Shown one piece after another: positions 2,816 to 40,534 of a stretch of 64,000 bases of DNA. Origin of the DNA: a virus; the IMG/VR virus record IMGVR_UViG_3300025073_000448, one strand, 5' to 3'. How positions within the stretch are numbered: the first letter of the stretch is position 1; the number at the start of each line of letters is the position of its first letter. The notes beneath the pieces are model-generated. The model did not search any database. It saw only the letters and a list, made by a program, of their open reading frames with translations, and was not told the DNA's origin. A program made the translations under genes and the position numbers.

Positions 2816-3661
2816 TCAAGACCCTCCTCTCTCCTCCCGCAACATACTTATTTCTTCCAGTGCTTGCATGTCAGATAACCCATTTTTAATCTTTGTATAA
2901 AATATGTCATGGCCGACATTAAATTCTTTCATCCAATCAGACAATATTTTTACTTTCCCGTTCCACGCTATAAATCTATTTTTGCGAGTATTTTTAGCTT
3001 GCATTGCGAGTGGTATCCACTCACAATTATTTGCATCATAGTTACCATTTACATTCTTTCTTTCAAGCGAATATCCACTTGGACATAAACCCATATCACT
3101 TAAAAATTGTTTAAAATTGTTAATCCATTCATCACATATAGTTATTCCACGTCCACCATAGCATTCATATCTATCAGCATTTTTATTAAGGCATCTTTTC
3201 TTCATATCTGCCCATGCATCATATTCTCTTGAATGATTTCTTTGTCTTGCATGTCCATGAATTACCTTGTTTTCCCACGTTTCACTTATCAAGCATCCGC
3301 AGCTTCTTGTATTCCCGAATAACCTGCCATATTCTACTGCCACCATATTTCCACAATCGCATCGACATTCCCATAATATCTTTCCGCTTCTATCTTTTCT
3401 GTTTGATTTACATAGCACAGTTAGCTTTCCGGTTTTCATTCCTGTAATATCATTTCCTGCTCTACGTTTATATTGTTTACACCCACATGATTTGGTGTTT
3501 CCTGTTTTTAAGGCATTCCCCTTCCATGTACCAATTAATCCGCACTCACATTGACACTCCCACATTATTTCATTCTTTTTGCCTCGCTTGTCACTTCTTT
3601 TCAGAACTAATATGTAACCAAATTTCTTTCCTGTTAAGTCAATGTAATTTCTTGTTTTCAT
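2816..3661 (-). CDS. HNH-type homing-endonuclease-like protein with two DLTGxKFG...WxCxCxCG...SCGC repeats
   Basis: Repeats plus YGGRGITICDEW and SLERKNVNGNYDANNCEW; AT-rich relative to flanks; start MKTRNY at 3661. Confidence 0.85.
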   Translation of the reverse strand: MKTRNYIDLTGKKFGYILVLKRSDKRGKKNEIMWECQCECGLIGTWKGNALKTGNTKSCGCKQYKRRAGNDITGMKTGKLTVLCKSNRKDRSGKILWECRCDCGNMVAVEYGRLFGNTRSCGCLISETWENKVIHGHARQRNHSREYDAWADMKKRCLNKNADRYECYGGRGITICDEWINNFKQFLSDMGLCPSGYSLERKNVNGNYDANNCEWIPLAMQAKNTRKNRFIAWNGKVKILSDWMKEFNVGHDIFYTKIKNGLSDMQALEEISMLREERGGS

Positions 3662-3785
3662 TGACGCGCCTCGCAGAAAATAAAAAAGCGCAAAGAGCTG
3701 CGAGGGATTCAACATCCCCTCTTGGCCTCACGACCAAAAGACTCTTTGCGCTAACTGGATATCGATATTTACTAATTACAGCCAT
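3639..3785 (-). CDS. Putative 48-aa leader uORF overlapping the HNH start
   Basis: GGAGG-8nt-ATG; MAVISKYRYPVSAKSLLVVRPRGDVESLAALCAFLFSARRVNENKKLH*; spans RNA element 1. Confidence 0.45.
   Translation of the reverse strand: MAVISKYRYPVSAKSLLVVRPRGDVESLAALCAFLFSARRVNENKKLH
3687..3752 (-). ncRNA. Three-way-junction RNA element 1
   Basis: 11-bp outer stem AGCGCAAAGAG/CTCTTTGCGCT, GUGA-tetraloop hairpin, GGGAU/AUCCC hairpin, followed by a U-tract. Confidence 0.65.
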
Positions 3786-3829
3786 TACGGAGGCCTCCGG
3801 TTGAATCTTCGCAATTCAGATCCTACCAA

Positions 3830-4879
3830 CTAAAACGGAGACTTCTCACCTGCTCCGCTTCCAGTCCCACCAGCAGCCCCACCCTTCTTGGCTTGGCCCG
3901 CGCCGGAATCCTTGGCGCCCGCGCTGGCCCCACCAGCAGGCTTCATGAACTCAGGCTCGCCGGGCCTGCTTTCTGCGCCGCCTACATCCCCGCCCGCTCC
4001 GCCATATCCTCCACCCGAGCCTCCTTCCCCGCCACTCCCACCCCCGGCCGCAGCAGCTTCCGCCGCCTCTTCCGCCTCAAACGTTGTCTGAACGCTGGCA
4101 TCCTTTAGGGACTCGACCGTCGGGATAATGATCTCGTTCAGCAGCACCTCGTCAACCGGCTTCGGCATGGTGAACTTTGCGCGGTAATGCTTCTGAGGCT
4201 CGAGTCGCTTCTCTAGGGATATCTCGGTCTGAAACATGAAGAAGGGCTTGCGGCGGAGCATGACGCTCGAGATGAAACCCTTGGTGGGTTTGATGCTTAC
4301 GCCGTGGAGCGTCGTCCAGAAGGGGACCCCATCATCGATTCCAATGCAGAGAAGATTATAAAGAGTTCCGCAGGGAGGCTTGGTCTTTCCGTCCTCGTCC
4401 CATGCTCCGAACTGGCATACTTGCTTGGGGCGATTCCCTGGCCCCATGACTGCACAAACCTTGGAAGGAGGGAATGGGTGGCGTGAATCAGGCTCCCAGA
4501 ACGTATATGATCGGCAAAGCAAGTCCTCTCCGTCTCCGGATGCCAGCCATTCGGAGTTTTTTCCCGTCTCTGCGATGAGATCTTGCATGTATGCATTTAC
4601 TTCCGTGGAGTTCTTGGTTCGATCCTGCTGACTCCATAGAGCTCGGCCTTTGTCGGCCTTCACGATCACTACATTCAGCGTTTCCACCTCTTCCCCGGTA
4701 AGATTGCAGAGAAAGTGACCCTCGGTTCCGGTTTTACTCGTCGGCTGCACCACCTTATAGCGCGGGATCACGAGATCGGACGCATCAAACGATTCCCACC
4801 CCGTATAGCCTTGAAGGCTTTCAGGGATTACTACAGCGCCTGCGGGGGAGTGGATAGCAAGATCCTTCGATTCACTCAT
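3830..4879 (-). CDS. Putative ssDNA-binding/annealing protein
   Basis: DLVIPRYKVVQ-type N-terminus, long Gly/Ala-rich tail ending ...SPF like an SSB tip, located in the recombination block. Confidence 0.5.
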   Translation of the reverse strand: MSESKDLAIHSPAGAVVIPESLQGYTGWESFDASDLVIPRYKVVQPTSKTGTEGHFLCNLTGEEVETLNVVIVKADKGRALWSQQDRTKNSTEVNAYMQDLIAETGKNSEWLASGDGEDLLCRSYTFWEPDSRHPFPPSKVCAVMGPGNRPKQVCQFGAWDEDGKTKPPCGTLYNLLCIGIDDGVPFWTTLHGVSIKPTKGFISSVMLRRKPFFMFQTEISLEKRLEPQKHYRAKFTMPKPVDEVLLNEIIIPTVESLKDASVQTTFEAEEAAEAAAAGGGSGGEGGSGGGYGGAGGDVGGAESRPGEPEFMKPAGGASAGAKDSGAGQAKKGGAAGGTGSGAGEKSPF

Positions 4880-4883
4880 GACA

Positions 4884-5384
4884 TTATTCCTTTTCTATTG
4901 GAAAGTTGAGACATGCAAATTCACCAAAGAACTCAACTGCTTTTGCGTCGTATGCTTTGGCGGCTTCAATTTCTTGGTGAGGCTGAAATGACCCAAGGTG
5001 ATATCTTTTTTTGTTAGTTTTTATTTGAGCATACCATCTGTTGTGATTTTTATCCCATGTAACTCCTTTGTATTGTGATATCCCGGTAGTTGTTCTAACG
5101 TTCTGCTGATTACATTGATGCGTTGCCTTCCTAAGATTGAATCTCTGATTGTTCAAGCCATTCCCGTCCCAATGATCCACCTCAATGTCTTCATTCGTCA
5201 ACAATAGTAATTCTCTGTGCATATATATTTTTGGATATCTGACCCCCTTAACAACCGGGGCATTTCGGACAGCATACCACTTATTCTTTGCCGGGTTTGC
5301 ATACCACCGCCACTGCATCAACCACTCCCAATCCTCATCATCAACCAGCGCCACCTTGCCCTGAGTCAAAGGTATTTCCTTCAT
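4884..5384 (-). CDS. HNH endonuclease with C-terminal AP2 domain
   Basis: MKEIPLTQGKVALVDDED, EVDHWDGNGLNNQRFNLR, YKGVTWDK...WYAQI...AAKAYD...FGEFACLNF. Confidence 0.92.
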   Translation of the reverse strand: MKEIPLTQGKVALVDDEDWEWLMQWRWYANPAKNKWYAVRNAPVVKGVRYPKIYMHRELLLLTNEDIEVDHWDGNGLNNQRFNLRKATHQCNQQNVRTTTGISQYKGVTWDKNHNRWYAQIKTNKKRYHLGSFQPHQEIEAAKAYDAKAVEFFGEFACLNFPIEKE

Positions 5385-5388
5385 GACA

Positions 5389-5523
5389 TCATCCCCCAAA
5401 AAAGAAATCGCGCGGATCATGGGTCACCGACTGTCGCTCATCAAGCAAGGAAAATGAGCGAGGCCCAGGAGTCTTTCTCTCCAGTCCACGATACGCGCGA
5501 TAGGGTATTCTATTCTTCTTCAT
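5389..5523 (-). CDS. Putative 44-aa leader uORF upstream of the HNH-AP2 gene
   Basis: AAGCAAGGAA RBS then ATG; MKKNRIPYRAYRGLERKTPGPRSFSLLDERQSVTHDPRDFFFGG*; stop lies 4 nt before the HNH ATG. Confidence 0.5.
   Translation of the reverse strand: MKKNRIPYRAYRGLERKTPGPRSFSLLDERQSVTHDPRDFFFGG
5407..5501 (-). ncRNA. Three-way-junction RNA element 2
   Basis: 16-bp outer stem (1 mismatch, 1 GU), GGAG-AGAAAGA-CUCC hairpin, CGCUCAU/AUGAGCG hairpin with a pyrimidine-rich loop, then a U-tract. Confidence 0.65.
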
Positions 5524-5572
5524 GGGATTCCTTGCTTCTTTGCCGGTGTCGAGTCGTGACTTCGACGGAATC

Positions 5573-5600
5573 ACGTTATCACTCACAGGAATGATGTCAA
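5573..5600 (-). promoter_or_regulatory. Sigma70-like promoter for the uORF/HNH-AP2 unit
   Basis: TTGACA-16nt-TAACGT with an extended TG. Confidence 0.55.
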
Positions 5601-5629
5601 TGAATTTGTTACACTTTGCTTGTGTTCGT

Positions 5630-6349
5630 TCAATCCACGATATAGGACTCAACCCTCCTGAAAAGCCCGGTCAGCAGATCGACATCCCACTTATTGTAAA
5701 GAAGGATATCCTCGTACATTCCCGCGAGGTACGCCGGGTAAACCTTGCTCCCATCCCACCCAGTCGGTTTTGCTCCCACCCCGAAGTAGGCGCACCAGTA
5801 TTCCATTTTCTTCAGGATAGGCTTATTGGAAAAAGGGGTTTTCATCCCAAGGGAAAGCTCGACATCAACGTGCGCCTTGTTTTCAAGTCGAGTGTCCACG
5901 AGCTTGAGATACATGGAATGCTTTATTGCGTGGACATCCAGCATCATGGATCTGCGGTGCAGCACTTGCGCGTCGAATGATTTTCCATTGAACGATACCA
6001 ATGTTATCCCCAACTGCATAGCCTCGCGCATCCAGTCCCATGCCGCAATCAGGAGCTTTTTTTCCTCTTCTTCGTTCGTGGCGAAAAGCTCCAGGTACTC
6101 CTCGCTCTTCGAATCATACCCCACGAAAGAGCAGGGCCGGCAGAACTCGGGCTTGACCCCCAGGTCCTTCTTGGACTTCTCCCTGAACTTGTCCCGCTCG
6201 GCGTTGATCTTTTTCTGTGCGGCCTCGGTCCCCCAATTTGCAGGAATGGCCACCTCTGCCGGGTCGAATATGGGGAGGCATTCCTCGGGGATGTTGTCCG
6301 CGGGGATCGTTTCCGCGTCAAAACTGCGAATGTGCATGAAGTCTGACAT
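5630..6349 (-). CDS. PolB-related DEDD 3'-5' exonuclease
   Basis: FDAET (ExoI), LVSFNGKSFD (ExoII), YNKWDV (ExoIII); start MSDFMH at 6349. Confidence 0.85.
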   Translation of the reverse strand: MSDFMHIRSFDAETIPADNIPEECLPIFDPAEVAIPANWGTEAAQKKINAERDKFREKSKKDLGVKPEFCRPCSFVGYDSKSEEYLELFATNEEEEKKLLIAAWDWMREAMQLGITLVSFNGKSFDAQVLHRRSMMLDVHAIKHSMYLKLVDTRLENKAHVDVELSLGMKTPFSNKPILKKMEYWCAYFGVGAKPTGWDGSKVYPAYLAGMYEDILLYNKWDVDLLTGLFRRVESYIVD

Positions 6350-6354
6350 TTTGA

Positions 6355-6729
6355 TTACTCTCCTTTCTCGGAATTCTCTTTCGTACCATCTTTCTCGCGC
6401 TCCAACACGGCCCATCCCTGCTTTTCAAAAGTCAAAACATACCCGTCCGGAACGGTGATAATTCTGCTTGGAAGCTGAAATATGATCTTCTTATCTTCTC
6501 CACCTGTCGCGCCCATCGCCGTGAAGCACGCATCAAAACCTGCGCTGTATGCTTCATGCCTAGATGACTCCATGGCTGTGGCATGTTTTGCCGTGAGGGC
6601 GGAAAGCTCCTCCTCGTGTTTCCTGTCGGTCATCCATGTAGAGAACATCATCGCCACATAGAATACCAACGTTACAATCCAAATCGAGAAAATCGGAACT
6701 TGACTCATGAAAAGCGTTTTTACTTTCAT
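6355..6729 (-). CDS. Hypothetical membrane protein
   Basis: N-terminal hydrophobic helix; preceded by a repeated RBS module. Confidence 0.7.
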   Translation of the reverse strand: MKVKTLFMSQVPIFSIWIVTLVFYVAMMFSTWMTDRKHEEELSALTAKHATAMESSRHEAYSAGFDACFTAMGATGGEDKKIIFQLPSRIITVPDGYVLTFEKQGWAVLEREKDGTKENSEKGE

Positions 6730-6777
6730 GGCGACTACTCTCCTTTCTCGGAATTTTTTTCCGACACACCATCACCT

Positions 6778-7113
6778 TCACTCCCTGGAATCACGCTCAA
6801 AAACAAAGGGTTGCGTTGTGGTGCATCCTTTCCATGGCCTTTCCACGCCACGGTACAAGCTCACTTTCCGAGCCATAAGCTCGATGATCAACCGATCAGA
6901 AGTGCCCTTGGGAAGATTGGTCGTGAGGGCCTCGGTCAGCATGGAGGCTTGCTGTCGGTAGAAGACTTCCATGTCTTCCAGGCTTCTGATCGGAGCATGA
7001 TTAATATCGGGAAGCTCGTCGCAAATTCTAATGACCACCCCCTTTACCGGCTCGTTAGTATAAATGGGCGCCGCCTTGAAGATCAAAACCACCTCGGGCT
7101 GTTCTTGTGGCAT
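6778..7113 (-). CDS. Hypothetical protein
   Basis: ORF preceded by the GAAAGGAGAGTAGTCAGCCATG junction module. Confidence 0.7.
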   Translation of the reverse strand: MPQEQPEVVLIFKAAPIYTNEPVKGVVIRICDELPDINHAPIRSLEDMEVFYRQQASMLTEALTTNLPKGTSDRLIIELMARKVSLYRGVERPWKGCTTTQPFVFERDSRE

Positions 7114-7119
7114 GGCTGA

Positions 7120-8943
7120 CTACTCTCCTTTCTCGGGCTCGGCAGTCTTCCGGCTCAGCCTCGGAGGAAGTTCTGAGCCTTGAAGGGAAGGGGGTGTTTT
7201 CTTGTCCGTTGAATCCAGAAAAGCAGGAGACGACAAGTCATTGTCGGATGAAGTCTTCAGCGTTGCGGCAACCATTTCTTCGCTGAAAGGATCGCCCGCT
7301 CCCTCTTCCCATCCGCCTTCTTCCTCGTCATTCTTTCCATTCCCAGCTTCACCTTCCCCGCCCTTCTTCCTCTTCCCCCTCTTCTTACGCTTATCTTCCA
7401 GAGCTTCCGGCTTTTCCGGCCTTCCCTCGACAGGCACGCCGTTCACCGCGACAACCTCCCCCTCCACGAGATGCCACCCATTCTCTTCCGGCTGCTCCGC
7501 GACCTTCGTCACAATGATATGCGCCCCGATCTTCGCGGCCCACTCCCGGAGCACTCGCTGGCTATCCAGGTCGAGCTCGGCCCACGCCTTGTCGATGGTC
7601 AGCAATCCGATGTCCGGGTGGGACGCCATGCATACAGCGCAACCCACGTGGATCTGCTCGGCTCCGGATGCTAAACTCAAAGGATGACCATTGTACGTGA
7701 CGACACCCTCGTCAAAGCCCAGCCCGAGAACCGGCATGCCGGCGGCCTCGATCAGCTCACCCTTGTAGTTTTTGAGTGCTGCCATGCGGTCAGTGTAGGA
7801 TTGCGAAACGGCGCGCTGTGTTTCGAGGGAGGTCGTCGACGCTTTCCATGAAGTAATGGCGTTGAAGGTCTTGTTAGTGGCGTCTGCGGTGGAGATGCGG
7901 GTGTCGACGTCTTGGAAGAGGGGGGCGAGGTCTTCCAGCGACAACAGCGCCTCCGTTTTCTCCACACGCTCTGCCCGCATTTCCGCAATGGCGACGAAAT
8001 GATTGTTTTGTTCCTCATAGAGCTTGACCAGCGCAAGCTTGAGGTTTTCGATCTGAGACAGAATATCCTGTATCTTTAGAGACTGTTCCGCGAATTCTGC
8101 TTCTTGGGATTGTATGCTTGTTGAGAGGGAATCGACCGCCTTACGCTGCTCATCCTGTTCTTTCTGCCGTTCTTCCAGCGCTTTCCGCTCTTCAAACAAA
8201 TCCTTGACCTTGACCTCCTCGACACTCTCCCACCCTTCAGGCGGCATAAAGCTGGCCTTCACCCCTTCGAGGCGCTTCACTTCGGCGTTCACTTCTTTAC
8301 GCAGCTCGAAGAGCTTCTTGTGCGCCCGGTCGAAGGCCCCCACGGAATCACGCAGGTGCTCGGCCTTGACGCCGGTAAAGCCGGATCGCTTCATGAATTC
8401 ATCGGGATCTGGGCGGAAGGTGATGAGGCGCTGGAGGGTCTCTATCTTCTCTGACTCATTCAGGCGATTGAAGGCGGTGGGGTCCTGGACGTTCTCTCCA
8501 AGCCTTGAAGAGAGGAACTCCTGCGGTGACGGAGCGATGAAGCCACCCTTGCCGATGATGCTGAGCGTGGTGGTATACCCTCCGGATGGAGATCCGTCTT
8601 TCCCTTCCTTGCGATTGATCACGCGCTTCACCAGATAATCCCCGAAGTCGATCAACCCCTCGGCCCGGTCGGTTCCGTCCCGGATGATGTCCGCGGAGAT
8701 GTGCTTTTCTCCGAGCAGCATTCCCCAGAGGCATTCAAGGAGGGAGCTTTTGCCCTGGCGGTTTTTGCCCGTGAGCAAGACTATGGGGTCGGCAGGATCG
8801 GGGCGAATGTCCACGACCTTGAGCTTCTTGAAGTTCTCGGCGTAGATCTGGACTACGCGGAGAGGGGTGGGGATGGGTGCGGTGGTGGTGGTTGAAGCAG
8901 GATTGTCTTTCATTTCTTCATTGTCTTGTGTCTTATTTGGCAT
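7120..8943 (-). CDS. SMC/SbcC(Rad50)-like ABC ATPase
   Basis: IYAENFKKL, Walker A TGKNRQGKSS, long coiled coil, signature LASGAEQ, Walker B LLTID; start MPNK at 8943. Confidence 0.88.
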   Translation of the reverse strand: MPNKTQDNEEMKDNPASTTTTAPIPTPLRVVQIYAENFKKLKVVDIRPDPADPIVLLTGKNRQGKSSLLECLWGMLLGEKHISADIIRDGTDRAEGLIDFGDYLVKRVINRKEGKDGSPSGGYTTTLSIIGKGGFIAPSPQEFLSSRLGENVQDPTAFNRLNESEKIETLQRLITFRPDPDEFMKRSGFTGVKAEHLRDSVGAFDRAHKKLFELRKEVNAEVKRLEGVKASFMPPEGWESVEEVKVKDLFEERKALEERQKEQDEQRKAVDSLSTSIQSQEAEFAEQSLKIQDILSQIENLKLALVKLYEEQNNHFVAIAEMRAERVEKTEALLSLEDLAPLFQDVDTRISTADATNKTFNAITSWKASTTSLETQRAVSQSYTDRMAALKNYKGELIEAAGMPVLGLGFDEGVVTYNGHPLSLASGAEQIHVGCAVCMASHPDIGLLTIDKAWAELDLDSQRVLREWAAKIGAHIIVTKVAEQPEENGWHLVEGEVVAVNGVPVEGRPEKPEALEDKRKKRGKRKKGGEGEAGNGKNDEEEGGWEEGAGDPFSEEMVAATLKTSSDNDLSSPAFLDSTDKKTPPSLQGSELPPRLSRKTAEPEKGE

Positions 8944-9160
8944 TTTCGGTTTTCCTTTCTTCAAGTCGCGTCTTGATGAATCCGTAGACCTTGGAAGACA
9001 TGAGCCGCTCCAGCCTGGAGATGATGGCATACTCCGTGCGGCCGTGTTTTTCCATCCTTTCATCCAGGAAGGACAGAAAAGCCGAAGTCAACTCCATGTC
9101 TTCCTCGTCGGTCCAGGGCTGGCCTTTCTTTGAGGAAGTTATCGTGGTTGATGTACCCAT
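8933..9160 (-). CDS. Small Myb/HTH-like hypothetical protein
   Basis: PWTDEEDxxL...HGRTEYAIISRL pattern. Confidence 0.6.
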   Translation of the reverse strand: MGTSTTITSSKKGQPWTDEEDMELTSAFLSFLDERMEKHGRTEYAIISRLERLMSSKVYGFIKTRLEERKTENAK

Positions 9161-9465
9161 GGCCTATCGTCCCCTTCATACTCTTCATCATCGTCATCAT
9201 AACGGCCTTGTCCGAAGTCTTTGGTGATTGAATTCCCTCCCTTCCACTTCCCCTTATCCTCATCCAACTCCCCGTGCCTATCCCGGTAGGCAAGCTCCGT
9301 CTGAATGGCCTTGATGGCGCGGTCGTTGCCGTTGGCCGGGTCGCAAAACCACGATTGTTCCAAGAGCCACTCGAGGTAGCCGCGCGGGATGTCCTCGACG
9401 GGCTTGCCTTTGTGGGCCTTGAAAGGGCAGATCCAGAGTGATTGTGCTTGAGGCGTTGGTGCCAT
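9139..9465 (-). CDS. DUF3820-like small protein
   Basis: PFKAHKGKPVEDIPRGYLEWL motif. Confidence 0.7.
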   Translation of the reverse strand: MAPTPQAQSLWICPFKAHKGKPVEDIPRGYLEWLLEQSWFCDPANGNDRAIKAIQTELAYRDRHGELDEDKGKWKGGNSITKDFGQGRYDDDDEEYEGDDRPWVHQPR

Positions 9466-9480
9466 AATGGTGGGTTCCTC

Positions 9481-9828
9481 CTATTTGAATGCACACTGGA
9501 AGGGGAGTCCGTGACAAAAAATGGTTTCTTCCGACTGGTGCCATGTCACCTTGCCGGTATCGGACCAATGCAGCATCTCCTCGACAAATCCACGCTCTAT
9601 GCCACGAACGACTCGAGTAAAAATTTCATGATACACTCTGTTCTTCCAAAAATACGTGGCTCTTTGGAGAAATTCTTCTCTATTGAAGCACCACGTTTCT
9701 TTATCGTTGTGAACTCCATGAATTGTAATGCCTTTGGTTCGGTCGCAACGGGCGACGTAGCATGGACCTTCTATTGCAGCCACGCGCACTTTCACGCCTA
9801 TGTACTGTTTCATTTCCGTGTCAGGCAT
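9481..9828 (-). CDS. Hypothetical protein
   Basis: ORF with GAAAGGAG RBS. Confidence 0.65.
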   Translation of the reverse strand: MPDTEMKQYIGVKVRVAAIEGPCYVARCDRTKGITIHGVHNDKETWCFNREEFLQRATYFWKNRVYHEIFTRVVRGIERGFVEEMLHWSDTGKVTWHQSEETIFCHGLPFQCAFK

Positions 9829-9886
9829 AAAATTGGCTACTCCTTTCGTAACTCTTTCACGGTTTAGAGCTTCTTTTTTTCTTTCT

Positions 9887-10216
9887 TCACTCCTCCAACT
9901 CCACCCGCAATCTCACCCTTGCCCAAGCCTCGCCGTTCCGAACGCTCAGCCGGTTCAGCTTGCGTTTGAGCTCGTGGTAGATTTCCATGCCGAAGAGGTC
10001 GGCGAAAGAGTCTTCGTGAAGGGCTATGAAGTCTTCCACGGTGTCCTGGGTGATGGGCTGGTTGTCTGGATGACGCATCGGGTCGTATTTTGCCCCATAG
10101 CCAGCAACGCTCTTCGCGGCATTCTCCCTTCCCAGGTGAACGAGGTTGCCGTGAAGGGTGGCGATTATGGTGATGGGGTCGGATGGGACATGGGATGATG
10201 GTGGCATGGTTGGCAT
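9887..10216 (-). CDS. Hypothetical protein
   Basis: AAGGAG RBS ahead of the ATG at 10216. Confidence 0.65.
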   Translation of the reverse strand: MPTMPPSSHVPSDPITIIATLHGNLVHLGRENAAKSVAGYGAKYDPMRHPDNQPITQDTVEDFIALHEDSFADLFGMEIYHELKRKLNRLSVRNGEAWARVRLRVELEE

Positions 10217-10244
10217 GGCTTGGCTCCTTCTTTTAAGGGTTGGC

Positions 10245-10811
10245 TTATTCTTCGATCTTCGCCAGCTTTCCGGAAGCGTGGAAGATTTCATGGCAATCAG
10301 AGCACAGAACTATCAAGTCGGTGAGTAACTCATGAAAGATCCGCTCATAGGTTCGGTGATGAACATTCAAAACCTTCCCGCCCGCTAGATTTTGAGCGTT
10401 GCAGACTTGGCATCGATACTCGGCCTCCTCGAGTTTTGCGCCTCTTACTGCGGACCACTCGGGGGACATGAGGTATTCGTGGTAGATTTGGCGTCTGGTC
10501 TTGGGCGGAGGAGGCGGAGCGGATGAAGTGGGTAGGGACGCAAGAATTCTATTTTTTGCTTTCAACATTACATACTGAGACCATCCAAACAATGTACCCA
10601 CAAAATCTTCCCACTGGTCTTTGGTTATATCAGACTCATTGATATAATTAGTTATATTATGGAGATCTCTATTGATAGCCGATATCCATGTGTCTCTTTT
10701 TGTAAATTTTTCATTTTCTTCCAGGCATTTCATGAAATCATCATCGTTGTAGATCTTCTTTTCGCGCAAGCTTTCCTTGCGACCCTTCTCAACAAACTCA
10801 TCAAGCGTCAT
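10245..10811 (-). CDS. HNH endonuclease (C-terminal HNH, unknown N-terminal domain)
   Basis: YLMSPEW...RCQVC...LNVHHRTYE...LIVLCSDCHEIFH; AAAGGA RBS before ATG 10811. Confidence 0.85.
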   Translation of the reverse strand: MTLDEFVEKGRKESLREKKIYNDDDFMKCLEENEKFTKRDTWISAINRDLHNITNYINESDITKDQWEDFVGTLFGWSQYVMLKAKNRILASLPTSSAPPPPPKTRRQIYHEYLMSPEWSAVRGAKLEEAEYRCQVCNAQNLAGGKVLNVHHRTYERIFHELLTDLIVLCSDCHEIFHASGKLAKIEE

Positions 10812-10930
10812 GATTTTGTCCTTTCTCTCAAAAGTTTTCTCATCAAAACACGCCCCCAAGAGGAATGCAAGCGAAAAATGAACATGATCAACATTATTTT
10901 CCGTGACTCCTCCAAACCCACAAAAAAAGA

Positions 10931-10958
10931 TTGACATGAATAGTAAGCTGGCCATAAT
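10931..10958 (+). promoter_or_regulatory. Rightward sigma70 promoter in a divergent intergenic region
   Basis: TTGACA-16nt-CATAAT. Confidence 0.65.
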
Positions 10959-10977
10959 GAGGGCGGAGGTTTTGAAA

Positions 10978-11169
10978 ATGCCGAAAATTCCGATGAAGCG
11001 AATTACAAAAAAAAGACTGCGCGAGGCCATAGATAAAGCTGGGAGCCTCGTGGCGTTGGCCGCCATCCTTGGAAAACATCGCGGGTCAATCTATGCTTAC
11101 CTGGCAAAACGCCAAGCCCCGGCCGGGGTCGTGGACAGCATAAATTCCTATATTGACCGAGATGCTTGA
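10978..11169 (+). CDS. Cro-like HTH protein
   Basis: GGAGGT RBS; AIDKAGSLVALAAILGKHRGSIYAYL; first gene after the divergent promoter. Confidence 0.65.
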   Translation: MPKIPMKRITKKRLREAIDKAGSLVALAAILGKHRGSIYAYLAKRQAPAGVVDSINSYIDRDA

Positions 11170-11190
11170 TTCCAGGGAGGCCGCGGCTAA

Positions 11191-13785: not shown

Positions 13786-13890
13786 GGGGAAAGACCGGGA
13801 GGGGAGTGGGGCACTTTCTTCTGAAGAGCAAAACAAAGATCATCAATCCATCCACGAAAATCAATTTTCTCAATAATTCCGCGAAACCAT

Positions 13891-14248
<358 letters not shown>

Positions 14249-14284
14249 TCCTATTTCCAATGCACGCTTTAGCCCATTTTTTTC

Positions 14285-14312
14285 TTGCATTGCATCGTAA
14301 AAAGCATATCAT
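14285..14312 (+). promoter_or_regulatory. Sigma70-like promoter
   Basis: TTGCAT-16nt-TATCAT. Confidence 0.55.
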
Positions 14313-14381
14313 CGAATCGTCGTCACGATTTCGCACATCATGGCGGTTTTGATACACCTCAAAAAAACCAGAGAGGATTCC

Positions 14382-14522
14382 ATGAAAAATACGAGCGCAA
14401 GGCAAGGATTCAGGAGCAAGACCTGGAGCATGGCACACATCGCAACCTCTCTGGTATTCTGTGCCGAGCGGCGACCCTTGCCTTGCGCTTCTATGTTCCA
14501 TGGAGGAGCGCAAAAACCATGA
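14382..14522 (+). CDS. Putative 46-aa leader uORF, ATGA-coupled to the next gene
   Basis: GAGAGGA RBS; MKNTSARQGFRSKTWSMAHIATSLVFCAERRPLPCASMFHGGAQKP*; spans RNA element 3. Confidence 0.5.
   Translation: MKNTSARQGFRSKTWSMAHIATSLVFCAERRPLPCASMFHGGAQKP
14394..14489 (+). ncRNA. Three-way-junction RNA element 3
   Basis: Perfect 14-bp outer stem AGCGCAAGGCAAGG/CCTTGCCTTGCGCT, UUCAGG-AGCAAGA-CCUGGA hairpin, GGCACA/UGUGCC hairpin with a 22-nt loop. Confidence 0.7.
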
Positions 14523-15136
14523 ATCAGACAGTAAATCAAGGGCACTTCCAACAAATCACAGACCTCACCTTCGAATCTTCGAAGTGCAGGTTCATGATTC
14601 ACCCAAACACTAACGACCTCTATGTTTCTTTGTTCGATCTACTCAGGCTACTCGGTGCTGCGGACGGCGCAAAGCATGTGATTGGCTCATTGGAAAGAGT
14701 TCAAGACGGGGAAAGCGATGGAATCCCAACACTTTTATCTAAGCTATCAATCCAGAGATCACAAAACATGACCGGGATTCAAAGATTCTGGTTTGAAGTG
14801 CTCATGCGCGGAAGCTTGTTGATCGAAGATGCTAGTTGGATTGGAGTGGTGCCAACACGCAAGCTGTATCGAGAATACCTGGAATTTTGCAAGAAAATTG
14901 GAGAAAAATTCCCCGTAGCCAACAACATTTTCACGAAGCACATCAAGAGTCTGACATTCCATGGAAGCGTAAAACGTATTCGAAAAATATTCCATTATGT
15001 CGGGCATCATCTTCCAACATCTGAGTGGTGTTTGCGCTTCGATGATCTCGATGCATGTCGAAAAGCCTTCAATGAAGCCATTGGACGCAACATAATGTGG
15101 AGAATTACCTCCTCTGGCAGAAAAGAGGATCTGTAG
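14519..15136 (+). CDS. Fusion of a Bro-N-like N-terminus with a paralog of the primase C-terminal domain
   Basis: LYVSLFDLLRLLG (Bro-N-like, weak); C-terminal ~113 aa about half identical to the primase C-terminus (MTGIQ.FW.EVLMRG...EWCL.F.DL..CR..F...I...IMW). Confidence 0.75.
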   Translation: MNQTVNQGHFQQITDLTFESSKCRFMIHPNTNDLYVSLFDLLRLLGAADGAKHVIGSLERVQDGESDGIPTLLSKLSIQRSQNMTGIQRFWFEVLMRGSLLIEDASWIGVVPTRKLYREYLEFCKKIGEKFPVANNIFTKHIKSLTFHGSVKRIRKIFHYVGHHLPTSEWCLRFDDLDACRKAFNEAIGRNIMWRITSSGRKEDL

Positions 15137-21975: not shown

Positions 21976-22497
21976 ATGGCGCGCAGACCATCATCACAAG
22001 GAAAGCCAATCACTACCCTTCGAGGGGAAGTATCGGCATCAAAACCACCCGCGAAACCCGCACCGCAATCCTCCACACCCTCATCATCTTTCCCATCCTC
22101 CCCGCCATCCTCAATAGAAAAAACAGTATCCCGCCTCCTGAAATTCACCGCCTCGGCCTGCCATTCGGAGATCACGGACGCACTTCGTCACGAGATCCCG
22201 CGGCCAAACATCGCATCGCTCCCGCCCGTACCGGACCACACGCACCGCACACTCCGCTCCATCGGACGCAGGCTTTCCCCCTCGAGGCCGTTTTGTCCCG
22301 ATACCGTGAAAAAGCTCGTGGCCCAGGCCGGGTTGCCGGCGAAGCAGCTCCCGGGAAAAGGGTGGTGGGCGGTGAGGGATGATGACATTGAGGCTTGGAT
22401 TGAGGAGTATATGGCGCGTGAGGAGGGAGGTGGCGGAGTGGCGATGGAAGGCGAGAGACGTGACGGAGAAATGGAAAATAAAAAGAAAAAGCCTTGA
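21976..22497 (+). CDS. Excisionase/MerR-like HTH protein
   Basis: CPDTVKKLVAQAGLPAKQLPGKGWWAVRDDDIEAWI. Confidence 0.6.
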   Translation: MARRPSSQGKPITTLRGEVSASKPPAKPAPQSSTPSSSFPSSPPSSIEKTVSRLLKFTASACHSEITDALRHEIPRPNIASLPPVPDHTHRTLRSIGRRLSPSRPFCPDTVKKLVAQAGLPAKQLPGKGWWAVRDDDIEAWIEEYMAREEGGGGVAMEGERRDGEMENKKKKP

Positions 22498-22543
22498 AGG
22501 AGAGGAGGTGCAACGCCATGCCCTTCCCCTTCAAGGCTTTTTT
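22486..22543. terminator. Bidirectional terminator-like hairpin between convergent blocks (47-bp REP-like element)
   Basis: AAAAAGCCTTGAAGG...CCTTCAAGGCTTTTT, 15-bp arms with A and T tracts. Confidence 0.8.
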
Positions 22544-28493: not shown

Positions 28494-28494
28494 C

Positions 28495-29608: not shown

Positions 29609-29611
29609 GGA

Positions 29612-31204: not shown

Positions 31205-31238
31205 TGATTGAAAATATAACTTCGAAGGGGAAATTAAT

Positions 31239-34789: not shown

Positions 34790-34793
34790 GGCG

Positions 34794-35312: not shown

Positions 35313-35352
35313 GAAGAACGGCCGCAGAAAGAGAAGTCAGCAAAGGAGTTGC

Positions 35353-38346
35353 ATGGGCATGAAATCATATAAATATTTGTTGTTTACATTTTTTATCGCA
35401 TGCTTTTTTGTCGTGTCATTTCATCTTCCTTGCTCTCATGCCGCGCGAGGCCGCATCCTCCTTTCTGAGCCTGATGGAAGTCCCAGCAAGAAGCCTGTTT
35501 ATGAGATCCAGGTCCCAAACGGTACGCTTACCGAAGCTGCCGGGATCGGGAGTATCGCTGTGGAACCTGCACAGACTCCTGCATCACAAGTCGAGGCCGA
35601 AGCAGGGACCGAAGCTGGCTTGAGATCGTGGTCGCCAGTGCGTATCTGGCAAGCTATTCTTGCGGCCACCGGCTGGACTTCAGACGGAACCACTACCAGC
35701 ACAACGCAGGACACTGGACGCATTTCGTATGTTCGGACAGAAGCGGCATTGATCGCGGCAAATGCCGATTCCGGCGTTAAAAAGATAACTCCGATGCTGC
35801 CGTACACATTGACGGCTCCGTTTGTGTTGGCTTCCGGGAAGACGTATGCTCCGCTTCCTGGGGCTATCGTCACGACATCTGCAGTGAACACATTTGACCT
35901 TTCAGCCGGGCACCTGGAGGACAACGGCGGGAAGATGTTTTCGAGTCTGCCTGGAGAGGTATTTGGATTATCCGAAGCACCTATTGAATCGTGGGGGGCT
36001 CTCCCAAATAGTGCCAGCTATGCGACACAAAATACTAATGCTTTTAAGTGCGCCCTATATAGCATGACTTATTATATCGGAGCCACTAAATATATTGGGG
36101 GGGTGTTGAATGTTGGTATAGGAGATTTTTATATTGACGATGAAATAACTGCTGATCCATCAGTTTACTACATTGGCAGCATTAATGGACAAGGAAGATC
36201 ATCTTCTATAATTCAAACAAATGCTGCAAAGTCCATATTTAATTTTCAAAAAGCTTATCGTATATCACTTAGTAATTTAATGCTTTCCGGTGGAATATCC
36301 GGCTTAATAGTTAACGGGACCAATGTGGATGAAAATGTTTCATCAATAGATGGTGTGCATTTTAGTGGTCAGACAAGTATATCACTTGATGCACAATCTG
36401 GTTTCACGTCAAGTGAGTTAAACGTTAAAAATTGTACGTTCTCTGGTGCTGCAACCTTTATATCCACTTATTGTGATTATACAAATATATTGCAGTCTTG
36501 GGCGTCAACCACTGGAGATGTTCCAGTATTCATTAACCACGGTGGAACTATCACAATCAAGAATCTAGTGGGTGTCCCGACTAACAGTGGAAGTAATTCT
36601 TGTTGGGTTCGTAATTACAACCATGCGTATCTTGAAAACAATAGATTTGGAAGTGAAGATGGGCGCGGCAGGACGGTTTTAGAGCAAATGGGAACAGGTG
36701 CAAGCATAAATGTTACAGCTATCAATAATTATTGTCCTGTCAACGATTATGCTTATAAGTTTTACGAACTACCGGCGCATTTAACTTTGAATGGCAATTA
36801 TGGCTATGATAATCTTGGGGAAGCCTATTGCAAGGGTATATGGGTGGATGCTTCTGCTAGTGCCACTAATGATCCTTCGGACTATGTTTTACGCGACAGG
36901 ATAGTGTTGAGATGGGTGTACTCAGCCGGTCAATCGACAACATTAACGTCTAAAATATTTGCATTGGGAGAAGCGGAAAAAATAAATATTCAATCTCCTA
37001 TTATAGAATTCTCTGATCTTGTGTCTTCATTTACCTCTCTTGCAATGCCAGAAAAAGCAGACAGCAATGTTAATATTACTGTCGGTACAGCGGCATACCC
37101 ACCGTTGGGTGGTGCCGTGCTTACTACTCTTACCGCTACTGACGATTCTGCTAGTTGGGCAACAAACCGTAATGATGTTGTGTCCAATCATGGCACCGCA
37201 GGAAACGCATATACGTGGGTGATTGATCTTGTAGTTACCGGAAATTCTGTTCCACCATACATGACTTGTTACATTCAAGGGCAATATAAACGTTTTGCTC
37301 TTAGGTCTGGTGTTAATATTCTATCCATTGTAGCATTGGAACCAAATCCACAAGAAGGATGGGAAATTGCCTTTTCTCAAATCACTTCTGGAACCGTGAT
37401 AGCCATAGGAAGAATAAGACAATTTCTCGGAATAAAAAATATAGAAACTGTGCATACGGTGTTCACTGATTCAAGCACAAATTCACCTACTTCAGATGCT
37501 TACCACCGATATGATCTTGGGGATAGGGTGAATTACACGAATCCAGTCAGTGCTGGCAAAATAGGCGCAATTGTAACAACCGCAGGGGACAACGGTGGAG
37601 AAGCATGGAAAACATGGGGACTTATCGACATCCAAATTGCCTCAAACACCGAGGCAGCCGCAGCTTCAAGTACGTCCGTGGCTTTAGTTCCTGGTAACAC
37701 TTACGGGACATTCACGGGGTCAACAGTCAGAGATGACCCCAAGCTCCCGGAAGCGTTTCAGGATCTTGAGACTGCGGTGGAGACCAAGGCTCCGCGCCTC
37801 ATGGATACCATTATTCTGACCGCACCATCCGGCGTTCACACCACAACCGATGACAGTGCGACGCTGATCCATGCCGACGATTCAAGCGCCACCTCTGCAA
37901 AAGTTGGTATGATGCTCTACAACGTCACAGATACATCAAGCTGCACGGTTACAGCCTCGACAGCCACCGGAGCAACCTGCACTCTTGCAGGTGGGACCGA
38001 CAACAACTGGGACATCAACGACGTCTATCAGTTCGGGCCTGGACCTGCTCAGTCCGGTTCGGTTTTCCATGCTTCCGTTGCCGGCACGATTCGGCATCCT
38101 GCAACTGCGAACTATTTTGCGTGTTACCGGACTGATGCTGCTGCCGTGTTGACCGTTGATATGGTGTCTGACGCGATGCAATTCAACGGTGATGTGGGCG
38201 GGTCATACTCGGCGGGTATTGGGGCCGGGGACTGCATAGATTCACCAGCGACGGCAGGGAGTTATATGTGCCTTCACAACCGATCCTCCACGGTAGCAGA
38301 TGGACTCAATTATAGAAACCAATGGGAGGACGGCGGGGCCAGCTAA
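35353..38346 (+). CDS. Tailspike/tail fibre with beta-helix-like central module and predicted signal peptide
   Basis: ASQVEAEAGTE fibre motif, WGA...NTNAFKCA, Asn/Ser/Gly-rich AT-rich core; N-terminus MGMKSYKYLLFTFFIACFFVVSFHLPCSHA. Confidence 0.7.
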   Translation: MGMKSYKYLLFTFFIACFFVVSFHLPCSHAARGRILLSEPDGSPSKKPVYEIQVPNGTLTEAAGIGSIAVEPAQTPASQVEAEAGTEAGLRSWSPVRIWQAILAATGWTSDGTTTSTTQDTGRISYVRTEAALIAANADSGVKKITPMLPYTLTAPFVLASGKTYAPLPGAIVTTSAVNTFDLSAGHLEDNGGKMFSSLPGEVFGLSEAPIESWGALPNSASYATQNTNAFKCALYSMTYYIGATKYIGGVLNVGIGDFYIDDEITADPSVYYIGSINGQGRSSSIIQTNAAKSIFNFQKAYRISLSNLMLSGGISGLIVNGTNVDENVSSIDGVHFSGQTSISLDAQSGFTSSELNVKNCTFSGAATFISTYCDYTNILQSWASTTGDVPVFINHGGTITIKNLVGVPTNSGSNSCWVRNYNHAYLENNRFGSEDGRGRTVLEQMGTGASINVTAINNYCPVNDYAYKFYELPAHLTLNGNYGYDNLGEAYCKGIWVDASASATNDPSDYVLRDRIVLRWVYSAGQSTTLTSKIFALGEAEKINIQSPIIEFSDLVSSFTSLAMPEKADSNVNITVGTAAYPPLGGAVLTTLTATDDSASWATNRNDVVSNHGTAGNAYTWVIDLVVTGNSVPPYMTCYIQGQYKRFALRSGVNILSIVALEPNPQEGWEIAFSQITSGTVIAIGRIRQFLGIKNIETVHTVFTDSSTNSPTSDAYHRYDLGDRVNYTNPVSAGKIGAIVTTAGDNGGEAWKTWGLIDIQIASNTEAAAASSTSVALVPGNTYGTFTGSTVRDDPKLPEAFQDLETAVETKAPRLMDTIILTAPSGVHTTTDDSATLIHADDSSATSAKVGMMLYNVTDTSSCTVTASTATGATCTLAGGTDNNWDINDVYQFGPGPAQSGSVFHASVAGTIRHPATANYFACYRTDAAAVLTVDMVSDAMQFNGDVGGSYSAGIGAGDCIDSPATAGSYMCLHNRSSTVADGLNYRNQWEDGGAS

Positions 38347-38397
38347 GGAGACGGTTGGGTGGGTGCGTTGATATTTTGTTGGAGCGGAGAAGGATTG

Positions 38398-38697
38398 ATG
38401 GGGAGAATACTGCTTACGATAGCTATCACCATCATTCTTGCGTCCTATTCCTTCGCGGCAGACATCCCGTTGGAGTGGGACGCCTCAGCCGGAGCGACCG
38501 GCTACAAGCTCCAGATCTCAACGACTAGGGGCCGGTCATGGGGAGAGATTCGGGACACGGGGAGCGCCAAGACCGAGTACGTTTGGCGTGGCGCTCCCGA
38601 TAAGGGGCTCTTGATGTTTCGGATCATGAGCTATAACGCCCATGGCAAGGCGTGGAATACCACCCATGGGGTTTGGGTTAAACCCCAACGAAAATAA
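38398..38697 (+). CDS. Fibronectin-III-like protein with signal peptide
   Basis: ...YSFA then LEWDASAGATGYKLQ...FRIMSYN. Confidence 0.7.
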   Translation: MGRILLTIAITIILASYSFAADIPLEWDASAGATGYKLQISTTRGRSWGEIRDTGSAKTEYVWRGAPDKGLLMFRIMSYNAHGKAWNTTHGVWVKPQRK

Positions 38698-38757
38698 TAT
38701 GCACCATGCACCATGCTACAGCCATAACAACGAAAAAAAGAAAAGGAGAACCACGAA

Positions 38758-40416
38758 ATGGAAAGAATTGACAAAAGAATTACCCAAAGCACCACCATCA
38801 CCAAAAGCAGCAAAAAGGAAACCCTCGGCAAGGTCCTCACTCTCTTCCTGGGGATTATTTGTTTTCTCGGGATCACAATCGCGGAGGCGGCTCGCTACGA
38901 AGTCCTCACCGTAAACAAGCTCGAGATTACCCGCGGCGGGAAAATTGTATCCATGGACAGTCTCGACGTGGACACTACAGGTGACATGATCTTTACGGTG
39001 ACAGCCAGTGCTGCCGGCGAGGACATGATTTTCGATCTCAACGGAAACCAAAACGCTTCCATTCTCATTTCAAGCGAAGGGTCAGGGGCCGATTCCGTAA
39101 AGGTGGAGACGCTAACCAATGGCGGCGACATCATCGTAAGCTCCGTGGACAACATTCAGATCACCAGCACTACGGCATCTGGGTTGATCGACATTGATGG
39201 CACGGCCGGGCTGGTTTACTCCATTGCAGAGGATGACACCACGGCCGACAACATCGATATCGGGTCTGCAAAGGATGACGTTGACATTGAAGGAGAGGAC
39301 ATTACCCTCGATACAGCCGATGATGGCAATGCAACGGTAGCCGATGACTGGACCTTTACCATGGAATCAGCCGGAGGCATTTTTGCTGTTACCGGTACGT
39401 CCGGTTTTACCATCAATATCGGCACCGACGACACCACGGCGGATACCATTAATATAGGCTCGGCAAAGGATGCCACCACCATCTACGGTAATGACCTGAT
39501 CTTGGACTCAGCGGACGACCTGGAATTCAACGTAGCCGATGATTACACTGTCCGAATGGAGACCGCAGGCGGTATCGCTTCGTTCGACGGGACCCTTGGG
39601 GCAGTTTATAGCATAGGAACGGACAATTCGGTTGCTGACGATATAGACATAGGTTCGGCCCTGGATGATGTGGATATCGAAGGCGAGGACATTACCCTCG
39701 ATACAGCCGATGATATGGACTTCGCGGTTGCCGACGATCTTACGGTATCCATGGAGAGCGCAGGGGGCATCTTTGCTGTAAACGGAACCTTGGGAGCCAC
39801 TTACAACATCGGAACGGACAATTCGGTAAAGGACACCATCACCATCGGTTCAGCTCTTGATGATGTGATTATAGCTGGTACACCCGGCGTAGAAGCTGGA
39901 GCCGGTGCCGGTGTCGTGGCTGCGGAAAGATGTGTTGGGGCGATATGCCAAACCGTCTTCACGTTGACCAATGCAACCATTGCAATCACCGATCCGGGCG
40001 GGGCCGCTGCTTACGGCGGGCTGAAAATCTACGACTTCCCCGAGGGCAGATTGCTCGCCATGGGTGTCGTGGCCGACCTCACTCTGACCGAGGCGTCAGG
40101 AACGATAGACGCTGCTTTTGACGGCGATATCTCGCTCGGCACTACGGCAGCAGAGGCTACCCCTACCCTGCATAATCCGACCACGGAAGACGACTGGGTC
40201 CCCACGGTGGCAACCACTCAGGCGGTAGCAAGTGTTGCTGCCGCTGATTTCCAAAGCACCGTCACCGAGCAGGTTTATCACGACGGTCACACAACGGCCA
40301 TCGATCTGTATCTAAACGTGGAAGTGGATGATGCCGACATCACGACCGGTGCGGCAGACTCTTTGACCGCCAATGGGACCATCACGGTTACTTGGATAAA
40401 TTTAGGGGATAATTAA
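38758..40416 (+). CDS. Acidic repeat protein with N-terminal TM/signal segment
   Basis: About 3.4 copies of a 65-aa Asp-rich repeat; C-terminal KIYDFPEG...LYLNV domain. Confidence 0.75.
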   Translation: MERIDKRITQSTTITKSSKKETLGKVLTLFLGIICFLGITIAEAARYEVLTVNKLEITRGGKIVSMDSLDVDTTGDMIFTVTASAAGEDMIFDLNGNQNASILISSEGSGADSVKVETLTNGGDIIVSSVDNIQITSTTASGLIDIDGTAGLVYSIAEDDTTADNIDIGSAKDDVDIEGEDITLDTADDGNATVADDWTFTMESAGGIFAVTGTSGFTINIGTDDTTADTINIGSAKDATTIYGNDLILDSADDLEFNVADDYTVRMETAGGIASFDGTLGAVYSIGTDNSVADDIDIGSALDDVDIEGEDITLDTADDMDFAVADDLTVSMESAGGIFAVNGTLGATYNIGTDNSVKDTITIGSALDDVIIAGTPGVEAGAGAGVVAAERCVGAICQTVFTLTNATIAITDPGGAAAYGGLKIYDFPEGRLLAMGVVADLTLTEASGTIDAAFDGDISLGTTAAEATPTLHNPTTEDDWVPTVATTQAVASVAAADFQSTVTEQVYHDGHTTAIDLYLNVEVDDADITTGAADSLTANGTITVTWINLGDN

Positions 40417-40458
40417 GCAAAGGTTGGCCTTGCGCTGATTGCGTACTGATAATACAAT

Positions 40459-40534
40459 GATCGCGCGGTCTAGGGAGAGATCCCCGAAGAGCCCATACTC
40501 CCGCATGGGCCTGGCCGCGCGATCTACTTTTTTT
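40459..40534 (+). ncRNA. Three-way-junction RNA element 4 (apparently stand-alone)
   Basis: 12-bp outer stem GATCGCGCGGTC/GGCCGCGCGATC, GGGA-GAGA-UCCC hairpin, GCCCAU-ACUCCCGC-AUGGGC hairpin, T7 tract. Confidence 0.65.

Follow-up and report, generated by a model that had tools for sequence, protein, structure and literature searches.

We analysed four structured RNA elements, E1–E4, encoded in a 64,000-nucleotide (nt) stretch of DNA of an uncultured double-stranded-DNA phage (IMG/VR virus record IMGVR_UViG_3300025073_000448; this whole stretch is called the window below). On balance, we favour the view that a cis-regulatory mRNA leader not catalogued before is present in two copies, E2 (5407-5501, minus strand) and E3 (14393-14490, plus strand). 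It would be a self-locking translational governor coupled to an upstream open reading frame (uORF), and perhaps an attenuator too. Comparison of E2, E3 and an orthologue of E3 shows conservation of a predicted three-way junction, of pairing between a loop of this junction and the Shine-Dalgarno (SD) region of the uORF, and of an open uORF abutting the start of the downstream gene. The other two elements are E1 (3687-3752, minus strand) and E4 (40459-40534, plus strand).

Homology and covariation of E2 and E3

Minimum free energy (MFE) and centroid folds both give each of the four elements a long outer stem (P1) around two hairpins, that is, a three-way junction. The MFE values for E1, E2, E3 and E4 are -37.3, -42.2, -49.3 and -38.8 kcal/mol, with z-scores against dinucleotide shuffles of -5.28, -2.88, -4.82 and -4.75, respectively. 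An initial annotation of this DNA had described such a shared architecture for all four, and in this it was correct. It had also, however, taken the elements to be unrelated in sequence and yet members of one family with a GNRA-type hairpin. As can be seen from the search with model R2, which was built from E3 and its orthologue (locus L102) with E2 left out, E2 and E3 are homologues: on the window R2 matched E2 with 46.6 bits (rough E 9e-11). The other scores under R2 were 31.6 bits for the antisense strand of E3 itself, 20.5 and 18.1 for two plain hairpins, 16.9 for E4 and 15.7 for E1, that is, a non-self background of 20.5 bits or less, the E3 antisense aside. Under both R1 and R2, E1 and E4 scored no higher than the plain hairpin terminators that the phage also carries, and E4 resembles a different family, int-alpA (see below), which argues against a single family of four. 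GNRA loops are found in E1 (GUGA) and E4 (GAGA) only; the loop conserved between E2 and E3 has 7 nt, AG(A/C)AAGA. By sequence comparison, thus, E2 and E3 are one family, of which E1 and E4 have no detectable membership.

The three-way alignment of E2, E3 and the L102 leader is in register over the full 15-base-pair outer helix, with standard pairs in 93.9% of cells and changes on both sides in 14 of the 28 pairs, so that the covariation proposed as a check by the initial annotation is indeed found for E2/E3. None of 500 shuffles matched the alignment in any of five measures, and sliding the partners by 1–3 columns left 26–51% pairing. The six G-U pairs in the alignment point to the sense strand as the structured one. 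Compensatory substitutions maintain the predicted helices, P1 and both hairpins, as well as the SD:loop pseudoknot.

Unpaired letters are also common to the three copies, namely the AG(A/C)AAGA loop, GGA(C/U)U in the 5′ junction and CGG(C/U)GACCC in the 3′ junction. The conserved nucleotides fall in different reading frames in different copies, which argues for conservation at the RNA level. It is conceivable that the AG(A/C)AAGA loop and the CGG(C/U)GACCC junction bind a protein (possibly an encoded one) or a ligand that sets the SD:loop lock. Such a factor-responsive switch would fit the retention of unpaired nucleotides, across different frames, between otherwise diverged paralogues, and a three-way junction with a pseudoknot over a ribosome-binding site (RBS) is typical anatomy of a riboswitch or protein operator. 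However, constraint and recent common descent cannot be told apart with three sequences, no metabolic gene is linked to the element, and the two downstream proteins are unrelated, which counts against simple autoregulation. We therefore rate the switch as a rather improbable explanation.

Pairing of the SD region with the hairpin 2 loop

In E2, E3 and L102 the loop of hairpin 2 contains 10 nt perfectly complementary to the SD region of the uORF, which ends 4–5 nt upstream of the uORF ATG and would form the 5′ strand of the predicted pseudoknot. In E2, loop UUCCUUGCUU (5452-5443) faces SD region AAGCAAGGAA (5537-5528, minus strand); in E3, loop CCUCUCUGGU (14446-14455) faces ACCAGAGAGG (14367-14376, plus strand); in L102, loop CACCUCGGGU faces ACCCGAGGUG. 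A 10-nt complement arose by shuffling of the 60-nt leader in only 12 (E2), 17 (E3) and 10 (L102) of 20000 trials. The calculated duplex energies are -15.0 kcal/mol for E2 and -19.5 kcal/mol for E3, all three lying within -15 to -21 kcal/mol, and the best duplex begins at leader position 42–43 in all three copies. Between E3 and L102, which has ACCCGAGGTG opposite CACCTCGGGT, three of the ten pairs are changed on both sides and none is broken. Judged from these sequences, the SD:loop pairing is under selection, and we regard this as the strongest single result of the analysis. The complementarity of hairpin 2 to the uORF RBS noted initially is thus borne out, with 10 nt in E2, 10 nt in E3 and 8 nt beside the SD in E1.

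Pairing of this kind could also act between molecules, and the initial annotation had placed the elements with the CI RNA of phage P4 and the c4 RNA of phage P1. A leader terminated at the U run, or a processed junction of 65–95 nt, would then be a CI/c4-like antisense RNA that silences the uORF RBS of other transcripts from its own cassette and thereby blocks the coupled gene downstream. Each copy has its private SD/anti-SD pair (AAGCAAGGAA, ACCAGAGAGG, ACCCGAGGTG), as specificity in trans would need; each has a promoter-like site upstream and a U run downstream, as a small-RNA gene would; and the logic matches that of P1 c4-icd-ant. Nevertheless, we consider a trans-acting RNA unlikely. With only about 80 nt between the loop and its target on a single RNA, pairing in cis is the simpler reading, and intramolecular pairing should win kinetically. 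The U run of E3 is weak. Moreover, the E1–E3 regions matched no Rfam family, int-alpA included, at E up to 5–10. For Rfam C4 (RF01695) there was no match at the gathering score, at E up to 5–10 in the four element regions or at E up to 1 in the whole window, and the proposed CI/c4 membership is thus not upheld for any element. Over the window no Rfam family reached its gathering score; the search proposed initially yielded only a near-threshold match of E4 to int-alpA.

The uORF and the full-leader fold

As the initial annotation had stated, E1, E2 and E3 are contained in ATG frames of 48, 44 and 46 codons, respectively, with good SD sequences, and their stops lie close to the start of the next gene: overlapping it in E3 (ATGA), 4 nt before it in E2 and 22 nt after it in E1. 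The frame is open in all four copies (E1, E2, E3 and L102), the probability of being open after shuffling being 0.05–0.14 per copy. In three of these copies there are stops in other frames (E3 has one other stop-free frame). The peptides are unrelated between copies, E3 orthologues included. In L102, the frame across the junction is shifted by an additional A that follows the ATG and by non-triplet indels further on, and the ATGA overlap is restored. Translation of the frame thus seems to matter, not its product. The opposite view, in which functional micro-proteins are made from the short frames and the RNA structure is a by-product, would account for open frames with good SD and ATG signals. 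We find it very hard to credit, given that the peptide and the frame across the junction differ even between orthologues and that nucleotide changes track base-pairing, not codons.

In the MFE folds of all full leaders, the uORF start region pairs with the SD region of the gene, which extends the outer helix (P0): UUCCAUG with CAUGGAG in both E3 copies, and AUCCC with GGGAU in E2. The A-rich uORF codons 2–4 pair with the U-rich run; in E2, in particular, the U run faces A/G-rich codons 2–4 and the SD of the HNH gene faces the AUCCC before the uORF AUG. We also noted in each E2/E3-type leader a small predicted 5′ hairpin just past the promoter-like site (14315-14330 for E3; L102:2311-2340; 5565-5545, minus strand, for E2), which could stabilise the transcript.

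Proposed mechanism and its alternatives

By sequence, a sigma-70-type promoter-like site leads through a strong SD and ATG into a uORF of 44–46 codons that contains the junction, P1 being followed by a U-rich run, the SD of the gene itself and the uORF stop at or within 4 nt of the gene start. We propose that, once the junction has folded, the hairpin 2 loop would capture the uORF RBS. In the predicted folds the uORF spacer and AUG pair with the SD region of the gene, and both initiation sites would thus be closed. Only a ribosome that loads in the interval of about 80 nt before the loop is transcribed would translate the uORF, melt P1 and pass to the gene by termination-reinitiation. The expected yield is very little protein per transcript, which would suit an HNH nuclease that is selfish and toxic, as well as a fusion protein of DNA-binding type. 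In E2, P1 and the nine-letter T-rich run (eight U) probably also terminate untranslated transcripts.

Terminator-like features are not confined to E2. T-rich runs stand directly 3′ of E1 (TTTTTTATTTT), E2 (TTCTTTTTT) and E4 (TACTTTTTTT), and the run after E3 is weak, just as initially described. A GC-rich stem with an immediate U tract, as in canonical terminators, is thus present in E1, E2 and E4 and weak in E3 and L102; the simple short loop of such terminators is lacking in E1–E4, all of which are branched, with 44–79 nt separating the arms. It is possible that the elements are branched intrinsic terminators or insulators only, blocking read-through into the HNH genes (E1, E2) or ending an operon (E4), with no part for the uORFs or the loop complements in translation. 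Apart from the stems that end directly in T runs, this would agree with the int-alpA consensus, which itself ends in a U tract, with the terminators documented at homing-endonuclease genes (PMC2988022) and with the scores of E1 and E4 under R1 and R2, which are like those of the ordinary hairpin terminators of the phage. We judge it an improbable account, as it leaves unexplained the compensatory changes in the SD:loop pairing and an open uORF that ends on the gene start, and it sits poorly with the poor U tracts of E3 and its orthologue. In addition, the standard terminator-like hairpins of this phage are simple CCTTGAAGG-type stems, and the genes directly after both HNH genes, which look essential, would suffer polar effects from strong terminators.

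Several points weigh against the self-locking, uORF-coupled leader that we favour. The full sequences number three and come from two related phages, so that the covariation amounts to few independent events. The downstream genes have SD sequences of their own, and coupling may therefore not be obligatory. The P0 helix is a prediction only and is invariant between the E3 orthologues; it and the pseudoknot may be sterically exclusive. The kinetic, ‘one-shot' step is one that we infer. If E2 terminated transcription efficiently, it would exert polarity on the 349-amino-acid (aa) gene that lies 4 nt past the HNH gene. Finally, such leaders are not enriched before other HNH genes, the upstream 130 nt of 46 of these having a mean z of -0.74, against -0.19 for control windows.

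Distribution of the leader

The enrichment upstream of HNH genes that the initial annotation had expected was absent among these 46, and T runs were not enriched there either. Structured leaders as a general feature of that HNH family were rejected, the 46 upstream regions being barely above controls and not T-rich. Model R1 found no further members in the two IMG/VR relatives (L001, also G002, and L002, also G003) or in 95 loci, 80 of them HNH neighbourhoods. Searches with motif patterns gave two chance matches and no members in IMG/VR, four chance matches and no members in GTDB genomes, and only the L102 contig in JGI metagenomes; blastn against GenBank phages gave nothing meaningful, and primase-based locus searches found no further E2/E3 leaders. 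The E2/E3 module is thus lineage-specific and no property of HNH genes in general. The idea of a reused anti-RBS RNA module at HNH and DNA-binding genes, with which this work began, accordingly survives for E2/E3, where covariation supports it; E1 is a singleton that shows pairings of a similar kind, and E4 is int-alpA-like.

The E2 cassette

The E2 cassette lies on the minus strand. A promoter-like site (TTGACA, 16-nt spacer, TAACGT; 5573-5600), read from the sequence, precedes the uORF SD region (5528-5537) and the 44-codon uORF (5389-5523; ATG at 5523, stop TGA 5391-5389), the stop of which is 4 nt before the ATG of the next gene. The other two frames across it carry 2 and 5 stops, and the probability of an open frame after shuffling is 0.12. 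The junction (5407-5501), assigned by its fold, its register with E3 and the R2 match, is composed of P1 (5501-5486 with 5422-5407), hairpin 1 (5484-5466, loop AGAAAGA) and hairpin 2 (5461-5434, anti-SD loop 5452-5443). It is followed at 5392-5406 by the U-rich run (5406-5398) and the SD of the HNH gene, GGGGGA (5397-5392). The gene itself (4884-5384) is of the homing-endonuclease type: it matches PHROG HNH families, and Pfam AP2 and HNH_3, both just under their cut-offs, and we refer to it as HNH-AP2. The longest-reading-frame starts of both HNH genes of this region (3715 and 5420) fall inside the structures, and the likely starts are 3661 and 5384.

The HNH-AP2 gene and its leader are missing in L001 and L002. 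In L001 only 80 nt separate the exonuclease gene from the gene that follows, and there is neither HNH-AP2 gene nor E2 there. Relative to L001, the promoter-like site, leader and nuclease gene are, by this alignment, a single insertion of about 745 base pairs (window about 5625-4880). Other contigs with the E2 cassette are 100% identical and offer no variation for covariation. A protein 86% identical to HNH-AP2 (P0002) is followed by the same 345–349-aa gene; it was called with a 12-residue N-terminal extension, MDCAISFFGDDV against MIRAISFLGDDV in the window, in which the 3′ arm, U run and SD are conserved and two of the three 3′-arm changes are wobble-compatible. This implies, as far as the called extension reaches, a further copy of the leader in the same context. 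At about 57% identity, no leader was found with four HNH-AP2 homologues: in three cases the preceding gene is overlapped or abutted, and in the remaining one a spacer of 233 nt gives no R1 match.

The E3 locus

On the plus strand, E3 is preceded by a promoter-like site read from the sequence (TTGCAT, 16-nt spacer, TATCAT; 14285-14312), which in L102 has a counterpart at matching distance (TTGCAT, 16 nt, TAAAAT). The uORF SD region (14367-14376) and the 46-codon uORF (14382-14522) follow, the stop overlapping the gene start (ATGA); the L102 uORF has 44 codons and agrees with that of E3 in its ATG context and in the ATGA overlap. The junction, assigned by fold and covariation, consists of P1 (14393-14407 with 14476-14490), hairpin 1 (14409-14427, loop AGCAAGA) and hairpin 2 (14428-14469, anti-SD loop 14446-14455). 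The L102 leader (L102:2345-2505) has the same fold.

The gene behind E3 (14519-15136) joins an N-terminal module to a copy of the primase C-terminal domain. It matches the PHROG primase C-terminal families and Pfam Pox_D5 (22.8 bits), and its product appears to be of a DNA-binding type (primase C-terminal, winged-helix-like). Among 5.8 billion proteins it has one non-identical homologue, P0242, 51% identical. The locus of P0242, in a more distant phage, is L102 and has the same order of primase gene, spacer of about 670 nt and gene; between the window and L102, DNA identity is 73% in the primase gene and 68.5% in the leader.

The interval from the primase gene to the E3 promoter-like site holds an AT-rich non-coding stretch (13786-14260) with repeated GGACCAG/GGGCCAGTT-type words, T runs, a palindromic TGGACCAG hairpin (13897-13919) and, at 14160-14190, an (ATA)n tract; L102 has a comparable (TA)n tract. 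This stretch may be an origin or a regulatory region.

E1

The E1 junction (3687-3752, minus strand; z -5.28) has a GUGA tetraloop hairpin and a GUUGA hairpin, and its T-rich run, TTTTTTATTTT, occupies 3687-3677; of the elements, E1 has the best terminator signature. It lies in the 48-codon uORF (3639-3785; SD GGAGG at 3798-3794), which ends 22 nt inside the HNH gene and has a probability of 0.046 of being open after shuffling. The HNH SD region CUGCGAGG (3669-3676) is complementary to the junction strand CCUCGCAG (3705-3698). E1 thus has, in a single sequence, two complements of 8 nt, one next to the uORF SD (reached by 170 of 20000 shuffles) and one on the HNH SD. In the full-leader fold the CCUC after the uORF SD faces GAGG of the HNH gene. 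This endonuclease gene (2816-3661, minus strand; probable start ATG 3661) matches PHROG HNH families with E 1.7e-71, and its closest homologues are 37–49% identical. No homologue of E1 was found, its scores of 17.2 (R1) and 15.7 bits (R2) being background. On these features, E1 is plausibly an independent analogue of the E2/E3 leader, a branched, terminator-like junction in a uORF with a strand complementary to the HNH SD.

In L001, the place of E1 and its HNH gene is taken by a pair of small genes unrelated to them, for products of 155 and 93 aa (L001:7104-7898), with a CCTTGAAGG-type hairpin at the position equivalent to E1. This difference in gene content suggests that the junction there is an exchangeable slot.

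E4

E4 (40459-40534, plus strand) matches the int-alpA model (RF02996) in full (positions 1-71) with 33.2 bits, under the gathering score of 35.8; the E-value was 4e-5 in a 500-nt search, 1.6e-5 in 200 nt and 0.005 in the whole window. The junction letters of int-alpA (CUAG, CGAA-AGC and GCCUG) and the U run are kept, and a single model pair, within hairpin 1, is non-standard. Upstream, TTGGCC (40424-40429) and GATAAT (40448-40453), with an 18-nt spacer, form a promoter-like site that would start a transcript at the first bases of E4. From the sequence match, E4 is probably a divergent int-alpA RNA with its own promoter-like site and terminator. It follows a 552-aa virion-module gene and precedes, by about 355 nt, a gene for a Q-rich, coiled-coil protein; there is no uORF. 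This differs from what we take to be the usual context of int-alpA RNAs, which is either the interval from int to alpA or a position right in front of an accessory gene. The best target of the E4 hairpin-2 loop nearby is a 6-nt CGGGAG (40555-40560), which is at chance level. An 8-mer elsewhere in the genome, noted initially, was rejected as a target, being about what chance predicts for 128 kb. The window and L001 are 100% identical over the E4 region.

Downstream of E4, within the non-coding gap of 355 nt, lies a C/A-rich, G-poor and apparently unstructured tract (40600-40680), the composition of which resembles a Rho-utilisation site.

It is tempting to view E2/E3, E1 and int-alpA-type RNAs such as E4 as one broad, fast-diverging class of portable junction leaders with which phages and satellites equip selfish or accessory genes. 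An anti-SD loop would lock a leader frame in each, and expression would be metered by co-transcriptional ribosome loading or unlocked by a factor that binds the conserved loop and junction. We offer this only tentatively, and doubt it more than we believe it; if true, it would give the orphan int-alpA motif a function.

The phage

Contigs identical to the examined stretch occur in groundwater and other metagenomes. The minus strand of 1-11066 carries a replication/recombination module, and the plus strand the primase gene and virion genes; the window has no tRNA or tmRNA genes. A third HNH-domain gene (10245-11066, minus strand) heads the minus-strand operon; it has no E2/E3-type leader, and an unrelated fold is found upstream of it.

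The replication-module DNA of L001 and L002 is 75–94% identical to the window. In L001, identity is 100% in a stretch of the virion module (window 39600-41400) and only 75–94% in the replication module (1-11120), which points to recent modular recombination.

The word CCTTGAAGG or its complement occurs 24 times in the window (4809 to 63677), compared to 0.88 expected. Paired copies make long simple hairpins followed by T runs, at 22486-22542 and 43761-43817. By their form, these look like the ordinary terminators of the phage, bidirectional at 22486-22542.

Comparison with known systems

Knowledge of how compact phage operons restrain their selfish nuclease genes comes mainly from T4-type phages. 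To this, E2/E3 adds a compact promoter-to-gene module that apparently moves with its gene, as the leader and the HNH gene form a single insertion. At about 170 nt the module would make a small, clean system for the study of kinetic control of translation and of uORF coupling, and the leader could serve as an expression part of very low output. For the int-alpA architecture, which is uncharacterised, the finding also hints at what its function may be.

In the c4-icd-ant operon of phages P1 and P7 and in the CI system of P4, an antisense loop and its target, the RBS of a small frame whose translation the next gene requires, are encoded in one operon. The E2/E3 loop is likewise complementary to the RBS of a small frame in its own operon, a likeness of logic, not of descent. 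In contrast to c4/CI, the small frame of E2/E3 itself contains the loop, 3′ of the target, there is one loop/target pair rather than two, and there is no covariance-model similarity (RF01695).

The individual steps proposed for E2/E3 have parallels elsewhere. Long-range pairing closes the SD of the MS2 maturation gene at equilibrium, and only nascent RNA is translated. In hok/mok/sok the toxic gene is translated only via a coupled upstream frame with a masked RBS. In repZ/repA of the IncI-alpha and IncB plasmids, a pseudoknot between a loop and the RBS region is combined with an obligatory leader peptide (repY/repZ). With all of these E2/E3 shares logic only, without any sequence or model relationship. 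Unlike hok and rep, which use a separate antisense RNA, E2/E3 has none in evidence, and the rep pseudoknot activates, whereas that of E2/E3 is proposed to repress.

The int-alpA RNA (RF02996) is a motif of unassigned function from the survey of Weinberg et al. 2017 (PMC5737381). Its GC-rich outer stem, two hairpins and U tract make up the very architecture described initially for the four elements, and E4 covers the whole model. E4 departs from int-alpA in scoring under the gathering threshold, in lying 355 nt from the next gene and in having no uORF.

The closest parallel in purpose comes from T4-type phages, where homing-endonuclease genes (I-TevI/II/III, segB and mobE among them) are restrained by terminators, RBS-sequestering structures and translational coupling (PMC2988022). 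The mechanism proposed for E2/E3 would combine devices that are documented singly for those genes (PMC2988022). As in the T4 family, an inserted selfish nuclease gene would be held down by a structure covering an RBS, by a terminator-like stem with a U run and by the proximity of stop and start. In E2/E3, however, the masked site is that of a dedicated uORF of 44–46 codons, not of the nuclease or a neighbouring gene, and the masking strand is a hairpin loop within a three-way junction, in a predicted pseudoknot. Where T4 uses a late promoter that bypasses the structure, E2/E3 has a promoter-like site of its own, and, unlike the T4-type devices, the E2/E3 module serves a non-nuclease gene too.

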